DNA of 64,000 nt from Escherichia coli 042 (GCF_000027125.1 NC_017626.1); one strand, 5' to 3'; shown: positions 27,711 to 42,962, numbered from the stretch's first letter. Numbers and translations are program-made. The notes: generated by a model not told the origin, from the sequence alone.

Positions 27711-27717
27711 TTGGTAA
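27711..27717. repeat. left copy of 7-bp direct repeat TTGGTAA (att core) at satellite-prophage junction
   Basis: Identical heptamer at both junctions; joining the flanks restores a continuous terL frame (...VNFFTKHMNVWV...). Confidence 0.7.
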
Positions 27718-27792
27718 GAATATTTCAAGTTTTTTAAAATTGACTGTATATCAATCGTTTAACATGAAAAAACAGTCTTTATAAATCATCGA

Positions 27793-27813
27793 GCAATACA
27801 CAGCGCAATACAC
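27793..27813. repeat. tandem GCAATACAC repeats (putative integrase arm-type sites), left end
   Basis: Two copies here and two at 42804-42824. Confidence 0.5.
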
Positions 27814-27997
27814 GTATCTGTATTGTTTTAATGCTGATACACACCGTTTTTTGATACAGTGATTCGACCTACCATCGCGAAGCATTTTTTATTTCTTGTG
27901 TGTAACAATCTGACGAGGTGAGCACTCAAAGAGATAAGAGGCAGTAGAAATTTCGATCCCCCCTGAATGCAATTTTTCGTATATATATACAAAACAG

Positions 27998-28153
27998 TGC
28001 GGGTTATGCGGGTTAGCGGGTTATCTTCGCGTGCTAATTATCTTTTACTCTTTAATATCAATATGTTAAAAAACAACGCATTTAAATATCAGCCAGAATG
28101 TAACCCGCAAGACATTCAAAATAACCCGCAAACACCCCTCAAATAACCCGCAA
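27998..28153. repeat. iteron-like cluster: 3 direct and 3 inverted copies of TGCGGGTTAT
   Basis: Repeats read directly; same motif recurs at 36165-36291 next to the primase gene. Confidence 0.7.
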
Positions 28154-28232
28154 AAACATCCCTGAAAGTAGGTGCCGGTAATACTGAAAATTTATTCCAT
28201 TAAATGAGCATTGTCCTCTCTCATCCATTCCG

Positions 28233-29894
28233 TTACACACCATCAAACGCCGCAAGCCGCTCTTTGTGGCTGTCGCTCATATCGAATGCAAATTCCTCAT
28301 GCTCTGCCTGGAATGTGCCAAACGCCATCAGCGCCGCAACGCTCGGGTCTATCTTGTTGGATGATTTTTTCTTGTTCGGCTTGATATTGGCGTTCGCGTC
28401 ACTCTGCATCACAACATTACTCATTGACCAGGCCAGCACCGGATCACCACGATGCACAATCACCTTCCGGTTAACAAAAACTTCGAACGATTTCGCCGCC
28501 GGACTGAAACGAAGGTATGTTTGCGGGAACGGCTCCACCTCAAATCCTGCGCCCTGTAGCTGCGTCCTCAGGTGCGTGGCGTTCCATGTATCGAAGCCCA
28601 CCAGCCTGATATTGAAATTTTCTGCATCTGCCATGATGTCATCACGGATACGGTCATAATCAATGCAGTCACCCGGTGTTGTGCGTATCCAGCCCGCCTT
28701 TACCCACTGGCGATAGATGGCGCGGTTTTTATTGGCGGGGTTCTGTAGCTGAAATTCCGGCAGATAGTGACGGGAAACCAGCATAATCTTTTTACCGACC
28801 GGAAAGGCATAGCACACGCTGGAAATATCGCTGGTTGATGATAAGTCCAGCCCCGCGTAGCACTCCTGCCCGTATAAATCCGCCTCCGCGAACGTTCCGG
28901 CGCACTCCGCCCATGCACCGTTACCCATCCACGGCGTAGCCCCCTGACACCAGATATTGAATCGCTTGGTGAGCATTTCCACCCACTGCGACGGAATACC
29001 CCGCGCTTTCTGGATGGTTGAGGCCAGTTTTTCACGATCGACGGAAACATCGATATTGGGATTCGCCTTTATCCACATCGCCGGATCGTCAACCTCGCTT
29101 TCATCATCCAGCTCGTAAATCAGCACGAACATGGATTCGTTCACCTCTTCACCATCCAGTATCTGGCAGCAATAGTCGTAGTGTTGTTTACAGGCTGAAA
29201 CAACGTTGCTCCCCGATGTGGTGATGGCAAATAATAACCCCTCCGGACGCGCCCCCATTCCCAGTTCAAGCGCGGAATAAACCCCGTTGTCAGGGTGCAG
29301 GTGATATTCATCCACAATGGCAAGACTCGGGTTTGTACCTTCAATGGTTGCCGCTTTTGCTGCCAGTGGTTTTAACAGGCTGTTGGTTTTCGGGTGTATC
29401 ACCTTGTGTGCCTGAATATTTACCCGCTTTCGTAACGGTCGGGATAAAAGGCACATCTGACGCGCATCATCAAACACGATCCGCGCCTGATCACGACTCA
29501 CGGCGGCGGTGTAAATATCCTGCTGCCCGTTTTCCATAACCAGAAACCAGTTAGCCAGGATAGCGGCGACCGTGGATTTGGCATTTTTTCGCGGTACTTC
29601 AATGAATGCGCTGGTGTATTTGCGCCGCCCGGTGGCCTTAACCTTAAAGCCCAGGATGCACGCAAAGGCGAACTGCTGCCACGGCTCCAGCTCAATGGGG
29701 CTACCGCGCATTGCGCCTTTTACGTGCGGGCACACCCTGGAAAAGGCAATAAACCGCTCCACGACCTCCGGATCGAACGTGTAAAGGGGGTTTTCAAGGT
29801 CAGAAAAATACCGTTTAACGGCCTGTTTCAGTCGTTTACAGGCCGTAATTTTGCCGTTTTTTACGCCTTCTGCGTACTCATGCCAGGCGGTCAA
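28233..29894 (-). CDS. terminase large subunit (satellite-encoded)
   Basis: 553-aa complete ORF; same family as but divergent from the split prophage TerL. Confidence 0.85.
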   Translation of the reverse strand: MTAWHEYAEGVKNGKITACKRLKQAVKRYFSDLENPLYTFDPEVVERFIAFSRVCPHVKGAMRGSPIELEPWQQFAFACILGFKVKATGRRKYTSAFIEVPRKNAKSTVAAILANWFLVMENGQQDIYTAAVSRDQARIVFDDARQMCLLSRPLRKRVNIQAHKVIHPKTNSLLKPLAAKAATIEGTNPSLAIVDEYHLHPDNGVYSALELGMGARPEGLLFAITTSGSNVVSACKQHYDYCCQILDGEEVNESMFVLIYELDDESEVDDPAMWIKANPNIDVSVDREKLASTIQKARGIPSQWVEMLTKRFNIWCQGATPWMGNGAWAECAGTFAEADLYGQECYAGLDLSSTSDISSVCYAFPVGKKIMLVSRHYLPEFQLQNPANKNRAIYRQWVKAGWIRTTPGDCIDYDRIRDDIMADAENFNIRLVGFDTWNATHLRTQLQGAGFEVEPFPQTYLRFSPAAKSFEVFVNRKVIVHRGDPVLAWSMSNVVMQSDANANIKPNKKKSSNKIDPSVAALMAFGTFQAEHEEFAFDMSDSHKERLAAFDGV

Positions 29895-30234
29895 GCTCGT
29901 CCTCTTCCTCTGTTTCCGGTGGATTTCTGCGGCGGCTTACCGGGTCAAAACCCAGCAAAGAAGCCATTTTGATCATTATTCTTTCTGCGTCAGCCTTTGC
30001 GCTCAGGGCGGGGTTTCTGCTCTCACTGCCCTGACTGTTAACAATGCTGAATCCGCGCGTCGCAAGGTCTTCGACGGCTTTGCGGTATATGGAGTAGTTA
30101 ACGCAATACAGCTCCAGATTGCTCCAGTCGGCGGGGGTAAGGTCTTCCCGCCCGGAAAGCTGGCGCGATTTTTCCTTCCACTGCCTGACCGCGATTTCAT
30201 CCAGGTAAGCGGGGGCTTTTGGTGGTCTTGCCAT
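29878..30234 (-). CDS. terminase small subunit, P27 family (satellite)
   Basis: Start set at MARPPKAPAYL...; directly upstream of terL; the longer six-frame ORF start is an upstream extension. Confidence 0.75.
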   Translation of the reverse strand: MARPPKAPAYLDEIAVRQWKEKSRQLSGREDLTPADWSNLELYCVNYSIYRKAVEDLATRGFSIVNSQGSESRNPALSAKADAERIMIKMASLLGFDPVSRRRNPPETEEEDELDRLA

Positions 30235-41297: not shown

Positions 41298-41360
41298 AAA
41301 AATATCACCTATAAAAAAACCCGCCAAAAGACGGGTTGATTATATCTCATTTAATTTAGC

Positions 41361-41582
41361 TCAGGGTTTCCATTCACCTTTTACCCATTCCAGCACCTCA
41401 GATAAGCGCCAGACTTTTGTTTGTGGGCCAATACATATTTTTCGTGGAAATTTTCCTTCCTTTTCAAGTAACGATCTGTGTCTCCTGCCAAGAGCGGTTA
41501 ACCATGCACATTCATCTTCCTTAATCATCCTGTCGATTGTTTCATCATTTTCAAGTTCTTCACGCGTAACTATTTGAATCAT
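41361..41582 (-). CDS. AlpA-family regulator (second copy)
   Basis: FPRKICIGPQTKVWRLSEVLEWV motif; overlaps the 3' end of int. Confidence 0.55.
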   Translation of the reverse strand: MIQIVTREELENDETIDRMIKEDECAWLTALGRRHRSLLEKEGKFPRKICIGPQTKVWRLSEVLEWVKGEWKP

Positions 41583-42783
41583 TACTGTCACCACTAATTT
41601 GCTTATTCAGATAGTCGTACCACCAGTTCATAGCTTCTTTTTTTCTGTCCATATACTGGCTTCTGTTATAAACCCCGGCAACACCGCCTAATGTGTGCCC
41701 AAGCAACTGTTCAACCACATTATGTTCAAAACCATGATCACTTAGTTTTGTGGCAAACACTCTTCGCATATCATGCGCCGTCCATTTCTCCGAGTGTTTC
41801 ATCCTTTTCCATGTCTTACCGATAGTTACGCTTGCCGTACACTGACGCATATCAAACCCAATCACATTTTCTTTGTTACCTGTTATTTTTTTTAACGTAA
41901 CTAACCAGTTAAACATGCCATCAGGAATCGGTCTGATTATTTCCCTGCCATTTTTGCTATGATCAGCGGGAACGCGCCATAATTTCTTATCAAAATCCCA
42001 CTCTACCCAGGACGACAGTAATACTTCTGACAGTCGACAACCAAAAACTACCAGGAAACGTAAAATAATTCGGTTTTCATATGATAATTCGTGATTGTCA
42101 TAATCAGTATTAATACTTCGCCATAAATCTCTGATTTCATCATCTGTTAAAACCCTGCTTCTTCGCGCAGACTTTTTTCCCACATCACAGACCTCAAGAT
42201 CATCAATTTCATGACTAATCGCGTATTTTCTTACCCTACAAAATTTAAGCGCCTGTTTTGATATACGCAACAAAGCTCCGGCCTGTACAGGTGCTACTTT
42301 TTTTATTTTGTCAAAACACTTAATCCACATAGATATAGAGCAATCACTAAGTGGTACATGACCAATCACCGGATAAATATGTTTACCAAAGCACTGCCTG
42401 ATATGTTCTGCTCCCCTACGCTTATCCATTGCATAATTATCAAGCCAGTATTCAAGTGCCTCACGAACGGTAACAGGTTGCAAGGTGGCTTCCCGTTCAA
42501 TTTTTATCTGAATCCGTGGATCTCTGCCCTCCGCAAGCCAAGTTCGACACTGATCGCGCATCTCTCTCGCTGATTTGAGACTCAGATCAGGATATTTTCC
42601 AAGTGTCAGCCAGATGGGCGCGGTTTCCCTTCCCGCCAGTCTGTAAAAGAAAACAAAACTAACACATCCGTATTTACTGACCCGTACCGAAAGCCCGTTA
42701 CCATCAGCGATGGTTTCCTGCCTCTCACTCCTGCGTCCAAGCAGGGAACGAAGTTTTTTATCGCTCAGTTTGTTTAGCGCCAT
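41560..42783 (-). CDS. tyrosine integrase (P4-like)
   Basis: 407-aa segment beginning MALNKLSDKKLRSL...; catalytic region HDMRR...LLGH...VY; upstream part of the 807-aa ORF is read-through from terL. Confidence 0.85.
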   Translation of the reverse strand: MALNKLSDKKLRSLLGRRSERQETIADGNGLSVRVSKYGCVSFVFFYRLAGRETAPIWLTLGKYPDLSLKSAREMRDQCRTWLAEGRDPRIQIKIEREATLQPVTVREALEYWLDNYAMDKRRGAEHIRQCFGKHIYPVIGHVPLSDCSISMWIKCFDKIKKVAPVQAGALLRISKQALKFCRVRKYAISHEIDDLEVCDVGKKSARRSRVLTDDEIRDLWRSINTDYDNHELSYENRIILRFLVVFGCRLSEVLLSSWVEWDFDKKLWRVPADHSKNGREIIRPIPDGMFNWLVTLKKITGNKENVIGFDMRQCTASVTIGKTWKRMKHSEKWTAHDMRRVFATKLSDHGFEHNVVEQLLGHTLGGVAGVYNRSQYMDRKKEAMNWWYDYLNKQISGDSNDSNSYA

Positions 42784-42803
42784 GTGATTTATAACCCGTT
42801 TTT

Positions 42804-42824
42804 GCAATACACAGTGCAATACAC
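42804..42824. repeat. tandem GCAATACAC repeats (putative integrase arm-type sites), right end
   Basis: Same 9-mer pair as at 27793-27813, same orientation. Confidence 0.5.
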
Positions 42825-42955
42825 AAATGATGAAAACAGCCAGAACCTTCCAGAAAAAACAAAAACGACGAACAAGAAAAAAATCTTTTTCTTTCATTTG
42901 GTTACTAAAAAAATCAGGACAGGTCGCACTGTTGTTACGGCGTGATGTTACTTTC

Positions 42956-42962
42956 TTGGTAA
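42956..42962. repeat. right copy of 7-bp direct repeat TTGGTAA (att core)
   Basis: See left copy. Confidence 0.7.

Follow-up and report, generated by a model that had tools for sequence, protein, structure and literature searches.

Interruption of a prophage large-terminase gene

A 64,000-nt stretch of the Escherichia coli 042 chromosome (NC_017626.1; hereafter the window) carries a prophage, the helper, whose large-terminase gene terL is divided by an insert of 15,245 bp, the satellite. The insert lies between two copies of the 7-bp direct repeat TTGGTAA, at 27711-27717 and 42956-42962, and this repeat is the longest word common to both junctions. An initial annotation of the stretch had proposed that a capsid-encoding satellite, similar to those phage-inducible chromosomal islands that form capsids (cf-PICIs), splits terL at this position and is flanked by a 7-bp repeat, and TTGGTAA was indeed found at both ends. 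Along the minus strand, the homology to the terminase large subunit (TerL) breaks at 42962/42963, picks up at 27717 and continues to 26981. The features around the two attachment (att) sites are the following.

42963-43983, minus strand: 5' fragment of the helper terL, residues 1 to about 344 with the whole ATPase domain, fused in frame to the integrase gene int
42956-42962: attL core TTGGTAA of the satellite, identified by the repeat and the published attL flank
27711-27717: attR core TTGGTAA of the satellite (published as 'ttaccaa'), identified by the repeat and the published att
26981-27717, minus strand: 3' fragment of the helper terL, residues about 345-585 with most of the nuclease domain

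Removal of the 15,245 bp in silico, in any register within the repeat, gave a single open TerL frame of 585 aa, as the initial annotation had expected for the joined flanks. The rejoined open reading frame (ORF) is free of stops and frameshifts, and its junction reads ...VNFFTKHMNVWVTAESAW... / ...KEQVSARVNFFTKHMNVWVTAESAW.... The Pfam domains TerL_ATPase and TerL_nuclease were assigned to residues 112-268 and 283-563, respectively, so the break, at about codon 344, is located early in the nuclease domain. The two junctions have only 7 bp in common. At the sequence level, the TTACCAA core (coding strand) in terL is the recombination site used by the P4-type tyrosine integrase of the element, and excision at this core would restore terL exactly. 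As the element brings no replacement terL sequence, the helper lacks an intact large terminase for as long as the satellite stays in place. Two details of the initial annotation had to be adjusted. The insertion had been called in-frame, which holds only in the sense that the frame is regained upon excision, the length of 15,245 bp not being divisible by 3. The 3' fragment had been limited to 27706, while its coding sequence extends to 27717 and the ATG at 27706 corresponds to the internal residue M346.

Among 5,426 complete E. coli genomes, 905 contain the empty site (matches over at least 80% of the 807-nt rejoined query; best identity 99.9%), and in every case the annotation there is of a single terminase large subunit. 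In strain S1-JOR-02-A, the same prophage occupies this locus, next to zinT, and terL is intact. Its TerL is identical to the rejoined TerL of the window at 583 of 585 residues, and the window aligns with this genome continuously over 1-27724 at 99.6% identity, the alignment resuming from 42956. The two terL fragments are therefore parts of one gene, as had been claimed. In addition, E. coli phages that have been isolated or induced (with vB_EcoS and vB_EcoM names) have the uninterrupted target at 96-99.8% identity. The 7-bp core is the same in attL, attR and the empty attB.

The initial annotation had also suggested looking for the occupied site in other genomes, and it was present in about 35 complete E. 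coli genomes, as compared to the 905 with the empty site. The attR-side junction was found in 33 and the attL-side junction in 35 complete genomes at 95-99% identity, with swine, cattle, poultry, humans and the environment as isolation sources. A joining error in assembly or scaffolding, by which a satellite contig had been placed in the prophage at a short repeat, has nothing specific in its favour, the repeat being just 7 bp long, and both junctions are found in dozens of independently finished genomes as well as in the published catalogue described below. We regard such an error as next to impossible.

Strain UMNF18 also has this terL split by the same satellite, and the downstream helper genes encode sheath, tube and baseplate proteins, indicating a contractile-tail phage. 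A megablast comparison of the UMNF18 helper with the head and tail region of the window gave no similarity. Since such unlike helpers carry the same insertion, the integrase recognises the terL sequence and not a particular phage backbone.

Satellite genes and relation to capsid-forming islands

The insert was annotated by PHROG, Pfam and NCBIfam searches. In the order of minus-strand transcription, it starts with int, two AlpA-type genes, a Bro-N gene, a divergent YlcI/YnfO-family unit and an Icd-like gene, and continues with small genes, a DUF4222-like gene, a DUF927 primase gene, iterons, a gene for a single-stranded DNA-binding protein (SSB), a PerC/Pch-like activator gene and an accessory gene on the opposite strand. 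The late zone consists of the genes for the major capsid protein, prohead protease, portal, one Ad1 connector, HNH endonuclease, small terminase subunit (TerS) and TerL. The features are listed below from attL to attR.

42804-42824, plus strand: doubled arm-type motif, second copy, near edge 135 bp from the core centre
41560-42783, minus strand: P4-type tyrosine integrase, 407 aa (PF13356, Arm-DNA-bind_3; PF00589, Phage_integrase; phrog_1)
41019-41594, minus strand: two AlpA-type excisionase/regulator genes, 41019-41327 and 41361-41594 (phrog_2790, E = 1.5e-34 and 2.4e-13)
40383-40961, minus strand: Bro-N or anti-repressor-like gene of the Bro zone (phrog_2593)
39574-39771, plus strand: YlcI/YnfO-family gene, divergently oriented (NF041551)
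38430-39368, minus strand: small genes, namely Icd-like (39165-39368), two of unknown function (38972-39172 and 38735-38968) and DUF4222-like (38430-38729)
36313-38433, minus strand: primase/replicase, DUF927 (phrog_1139, PF06048)
36166-36290: primase-adjacent iteron cluster with six exact TAACCCGCA copies
35677-36102, minus strand: SSB (phrog_44)
35365-35673, minus strand: PerC/Pch-like transcriptional activator (phrog_994 and transcriptional-activator PHROGs), 60% identical to Sakai PchE
34542-35048, plus strand: accessory gene, 168 aa, on the opposite strand in a variable slot (phrog_5789 only)
33086-34255, minus strand: major capsid protein, HK97 fold family (phrog_10)
32471-33031, minus strand: prohead protease (phrog_80)
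31255-32559, minus strand: portal (phrog_12)
30963-31262, minus strand: head-tail connector/adaptor Ad1, the only connector gene of the element (phrog_40, TIGR01560)
30523-30963, minus strand: HNH endonuclease, packaging cofactor (phrog_144)
29878-30375, minus strand: TerS, P27 family (phrog_83)
28233-29894, minus strand: TerL, 553 aa (phrog_9, E = 4.5e-181)
27980-28153: second iteron cluster, five exact TAACCCGCA copies and one near copy, oriented in both directions around a spacer rich in AT
27793-27813, plus strand: doubled arm-type motif GCAATACAcagcGCAATACAC, near edge 79 bp from the core centre

The domain and PHROG matches agree with the P4-like integrase, the two alpA genes, the Bro-N gene, the primase with iterons and the SSB that the initial annotation had named. 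It had also reported a lack of tail genes, and none of the 19 insert ORFs scanned gave a match to a tail or lysis PHROG.

The cf-PICI prototype is EcCIEDL933, and the order in proteobacterial cf-PICIs is capsid, protease, portal and connectors, followed by hnh, terS and terL (10.1101/2022.09.08.507074). The late zone of the insert has this same order, and the element combines it with a PICI front end (int, alpA and primase) within 15,245 bp, as compared to the cf-PICI range of 10-15 kb. The cf-PICI architecture proposed by the initial annotation is thus supported in both gene content and gene order. From its size, host serotype and content, we presume that the Sakai element Sp7 and EcCIEDL933 are one island. 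Sp7 is a tail-less element of 15.46 kb between phoQ and roxA that is syntenic with the insert, and the two are alike in their length of about 15 kb, in their gene order including the PerC/Pch-like gene, in the TAACCCGCA iterons and in the absence of tail and lysis genes. Identity to the Sp7 proteins is high for TerL (93%), TerS (88%), HNH (84%), primase (82%) and portal (81%), and lower for capsid (63%), protease (62%), connector (56-57%) and integrase (42%). Between the satellite and its own helper, the corresponding values are 32% for TerL and 24% for the capsid protein.

The insert differs from Sp7 in several respects. Besides the integrase with only 42% identity, the integration site is in a prophage terL, whereas that of Sp7 is chromosomal. 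The cf-PICI paper gives six attB sites in the E. coli chromosome, and the insert, being inside a prophage gene, falls outside them. Furthermore, homologues of ECs1593 (head closure) and ECs1599 are absent from the insert. The set of capsid, portal, protease, connector, HNH, TerS and TerL genes described in the initial annotation is all there, but it includes only one connector instead of the two of the prototype, and the prototype head-closure gene ECs1593 (13992-14330 in the Sp7 locus, L002) has no counterpart in the insert. In the window, the helper's head-closure gene at 23045-23380 is its sole homologue, with 52% identity. The missing gene suggests that the satellite depends on its helper for more than tails. 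SatelliteFinder accepts elements as cf-PICIs with 9 or 10 of the 11 components.

A closer relative was found in UMNF18, where a tail-less, non-embedded island is located between thiM and rcnR (within locus L004, 2,520,975-2,548,996). In the packaging and replication modules, it agrees with the insert at 97-98% of the nucleotides, and it likewise has split iterons and a single connector gene. In contrast, its integrase is 42% identical, its att is chromosomal and it lacks the GCAATACAC motif. This sibling comparison attributes the helper-embedded state to a swap of the int/att module on one cf-PICI backbone. UMNF18 thus holds two sibling cf-PICIs, the terL-embedded one and the thiM|rcnR one, with packaging modules about 98% identical, and frameshifts are annotated in several packaging genes of both copies.

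The TAACCCGCA iterons were confirmed in two clusters about 8 kb apart, one of them beside attR. The primase-adjacent cluster at 36166-36290 is the presumed origin of replication. The second cluster has its homologue in one half of the origin region of Sp7, in which the iteron sub-clusters are contiguous in the interval from the primase gene to ssb (L002, 18907-19232), so that one iteron half is displaced in the insert as compared to Sp7. The non-embedded UMNF18 sibling also has split iterons (L004, 9994-10118 and 19159-19284), and therefore the split is a trait of the lineage and not a result of helper-embedding.

The 15 kb could also be viewed as the head-and-packaging remnant of a second phage, nested or in tandem, that has lost its tail and lysis genes. 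Every gene of the late zone has phage homologues, and satellite and helper share the HK97/HNH/P27 type of head genes, as such a decayed prophage would predict. Against this, the late genes follow the cf-PICI order and not the phage order, and the front half with int, alpA, Bro, DUF927 primase and SSB is of PICI type. The same tail-less 15-kb architecture also stands at chromosomal sites, and the packaging module was found in 171 genomes (at least 80% of the query covered). At most 24% of the element was covered by any record of the phage collection, and plaque-forming relatives more than 90% identical across the element with contiguous tail and lysis genes were not found. We therefore consider decay of a second prophage very unlikely. 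The tail-less islands Sakai Sp7 (phoQ-roxA) and UMNF18 (thiM-rcnR) also answer the concern, raised with the initial annotation, that the 15-kb segment might be no more than part of longer tailed phages.

A helper-embedded satellite and its possible life cycle

PICIs embedded in their helpers (HE-PICIs) were described by Tommasini, Mageeney and Williams in 2023 (NAR Genom Bioinform, PMC10111431). In their site group A:Terminase_1:246, the att identity is given as 'ttaccaa', the window core TTGGTAA read on the other strand. The group comprises about 60 table rows, the E. coli elements being 15-16 kb in length (PMC10111431). The published group attR differs from the window by 3 mismatches over 119 positions, and the published attL arm, which comes from a member of this integrase group with an off-target insertion, matches the window over 96 positions with only a 1-nt difference in a T-run. 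One table row, Eco33.15.A_Terminase_1_246, is given as FN554766.1/2250958-2235714 of E. coli 042 with the helper Eco33.57.zinT|mtfA (PMC10111431). The catalogued Eco33.15 span is 15,245 bp, equal to the length of the insert, and the published attR of this helper is identical to window 6841-6994 at 154 of 154 positions. The catalogue was compiled from the integrase clade related to that of the HE-PICI 11capE, and in view of these matches the window integrase is a putative member of this clade.

The initial annotation had noted repeats at both ends of the insert, and these are two doublets of GCAATACAC, at 27793-27813 and 42804-42824, which account for all four copies in the window. Four exact 9-mers compare with 0.53 expected, and none of 100 shuffles reached four. 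A doubled TGTATTGC motif has been reported for HE-PICIs, and the doubled motif tgTGTATTGCantgTGTATTGCa is described as unique to them and as located at 81 +/- 2 bp on the upstream and about 132 bp on the downstream side of the attP centre (PMC10111431). The GCAATACAC doublets of the window match the tgTGTATTGCantgTGTATTGCa motif, being present twice and co-oriented, with near edges at 79 and 135 bp. The HE-PICI zone order of Integration, Bro, Replication and Late is present in the insert, as is the disruption of a helper late gene without replacement sequence. The helper late operon and the satellite int, alpA and primase genes are co-oriented, all on the minus strand. Thus, the element of the window has the same terL position, att, flanks, motif spacing, co-orientation and layout as A:Terminase_1:246, without structural difference, and it belongs to this HE-PICI group. 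The class, the site and the motif were already known, and almost certainly the individual element was catalogued in 2023 too. Insertion into a helper terminase gene, which the initial annotation had singled out as unusual, is hence correct as to the site, but the configuration, site, core and motif had already been published for HE-PICIs.

The HE-PICI paper regards the late zone as helper late genes that were captured, and the term cf-PICI has 0 occurrences in it (PMC10111431). A recent capture of the late zone from the present helper was ruled out, the head and packaging proteins of satellite and helper being 24-41% identical. The terL HE-PICI group is plainly a cf-PICI, and no statement linking this group to the cf-PICIs was found in the literature searched, in which two papers bring up both concepts without joining them.

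A further explanation would be an accidental insertion into a dead end, in which an integrase that normally uses the chromosome has killed a prophage to which it has no helper relation. Off-target cases are known for the same integrase group, e.g., Eco2384.15.A246_DUF333_yeaN, and many HE-PICI helpers look truncated (PMC10111431). On the other hand, an identical junction occurs in 33-35 complete genomes of varied sources and in at least two helper backbones, about 60 catalogue rows fall into the site group, one and the same core stands in attL, attR and the empty attB, and the helper is otherwise intact. An accident of this kind seems highly improbable.

We conclude, with a probability of roughly 90%, that the insert is a helper-embedded capsid-forming PICI of group A:Terminase_1:246 with a life cycle of the published type. 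The steps of this cycle would follow published HE-PICI and cf-PICI work. Upon SOS induction, the composite of helper and satellite would excise and replicate. Helper late transcription would enter via the terL 5' fragment and lead to the expression of int and alpA, after which Int and AlpA would excise the satellite and terL would be repaired. The satellite could then replicate with its own DUF927 primase and the TAACCCGCA iterons, build its own small HK97-type capsids and package its DNA with its own HNH, TerS and TerL, while the helper would supply tails and lysis only, and probably head closure. Helper packaging would take place only from genomes that the satellite has left, a form of regulated gene integrity that would favour the satellite.

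Some points weigh against this conclusion. The published HE-PICI induction experiments concern another pair, 11capE/50icd, in which 11capE sits in the lambda E-type capsid gene and the satellite left an excised, replicating composite (PMC10111431). Moreover, transfer of the prototype cf-PICI needed every gene of the packaging module except 1792 (10.1101/2022.09.08.507074). As the head-closure gene is absent and the prototype has these gene requirements, any self-sufficiency of the element in capsid completion would be putative.

The element is a clean example of hyperparasitism in cis, in which the DNA-packaging gene of the helper is held hostage by a satellite that brings its own capsid and terminase. 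It offers a worked case with an intact helper, an isogenic empty helper and a non-embedded sibling with a 98% identical packaging module. As the configuration, site, repeat motif and element are all in the 2023 catalogue, no new question is opened, and what is added is the explicit link between HE-PICIs and cf-PICIs, the missing head-closure gene, the split iterons and the T-run at the terL'-int junction.

The terL'-int junction, the helper and minor features

The terL 5' fragment is in frame with int and forms with it an ORF of 807 aa at 41560-43983 on the minus strand. This fusion depends on a T7 run at 42883-42889, between the attL core and the start of int. In the T6 form of UMNF18, the terL' frame ends at a TAA 5 nt ahead of the int ATG, and this ATG has no obvious Shine-Dalgarno sequence. 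Judged by match length, 29 of the 35 complete-genome copies appear to be 1 nt shorter at attL and 6 have the length of the window. The terL frame of the Arsenophonus member reaches a stop 19 codons beyond the core. A TerL-N::Int fusion as a conserved feature is ruled out by the UMNF18 T6 form, the 29 shorter copies and the Arsenophonus member, and the HE-PICI catalogue treats it as an annotation problem ("reannotate term_int fusion"; PMC10111431). The phrog_9 terminase profile also matches the integrase C-terminus, presumably since fused calls are among its members.

Either the T6 or the T7 arrangement would bring ribosomes to the start of int. Translational coupling of int to terL' is nevertheless given a low probability, because the Arsenophonus member does not share the arrangement. 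The combined proposal that the terL HE-PICI group represents an EcCIEDL933-lineage cf-PICI with an acquired HE-type int/att module and that int synthesis is cis-coupled to terL' translation is put forward as an unlikely one. If the coupling were true, satellite excision would be a direct readout of helper late translation, and the satellite would switch off the packaging motor of the helper while bringing its own.

Integrated at a tRNA-Ser site between zinT and mtfA, the helper belongs to the lambdoid siphoviruses and combines an HK97-type head with HNH/P27-TerS cos packaging. Its features in the window are the following.

6912-6942, minus strand: helper attR core, the repeat of the tRNA-Ser 3' end and left boundary of the helper/satellite composite, matching the published attR
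7627-26984, minus strand: late genes with a lambda-like tail (fibres, Lom, J, I, K, L, M, tape measure, T, G and major tail protein)
within 7627-26984, minus strand: HK97-like head genes (tail completion, gp10, head closure, connector, capsid, protease and portal)
43983-44964, minus strand: TerS (43983-44465) and HNH (44614-44964), the terL ORF starting at 43983

The lysis genes are located upstream, and the early region, which encodes a CI/LexA-family repressor and an integrase, reaches the end of the window; the other end of the composite is at or just past 64000. When the S1-JOR-02-A proteins were used in tblastn, the helper late proteins were found at 98.5-100% identity and at full length except for the major tail protein, which aligned over 223 of 234 residues. 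The split terL aside, the helper looks functional.

Among the minor features of the satellite, the PerC/Pch-like activator belongs to a family whose members regulate the locus of enterocyte effacement in enterohaemorrhagic and enteropathogenic E. coli, and it may influence host virulence gene expression. The slot at 33248-35046, from the capsid gene to the PerC-like gene, is variable, and the helper-embedded copy of UMNF18 has other sequence there; the slot could be a cargo hotspot. The accessory gene at 34542-35048 gave no PADLOC or NCBIfam match, and a PADLOC scan for defence cargo among nine accessory and small ORFs gave none either. P4-type C4/isrK immunity RNAs have been reported in some PICI Bro zones, and an Rfam scan of 27000-44000 (E <= 0.1) for these RNAs had no match.

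A 357-aa minus-strand ORF at 39165-40238 is probably spurious, as its 3' end is the Icd-like gene and small genes lie antisense to it. These plus-strand genes are the YlcI/YnfO-like one at 39574-39771 and another at 39814-40002, and three terminator-like plus-strand hairpins follow them at 40069-40436. The region 39165-40383 is partly conserved with the annotated Sp7 gene ECs1576 and gave no match to an Rfam family.

On the helper side, the sequence to the right of the satellite (42963-64000, with TerS, HNH, lysis and early genes) is related to S1-JOR-02-A in a patchy manner at 77-97% identity, as compared to 99.6% on the left, and the helper is a mosaic around the terL site.

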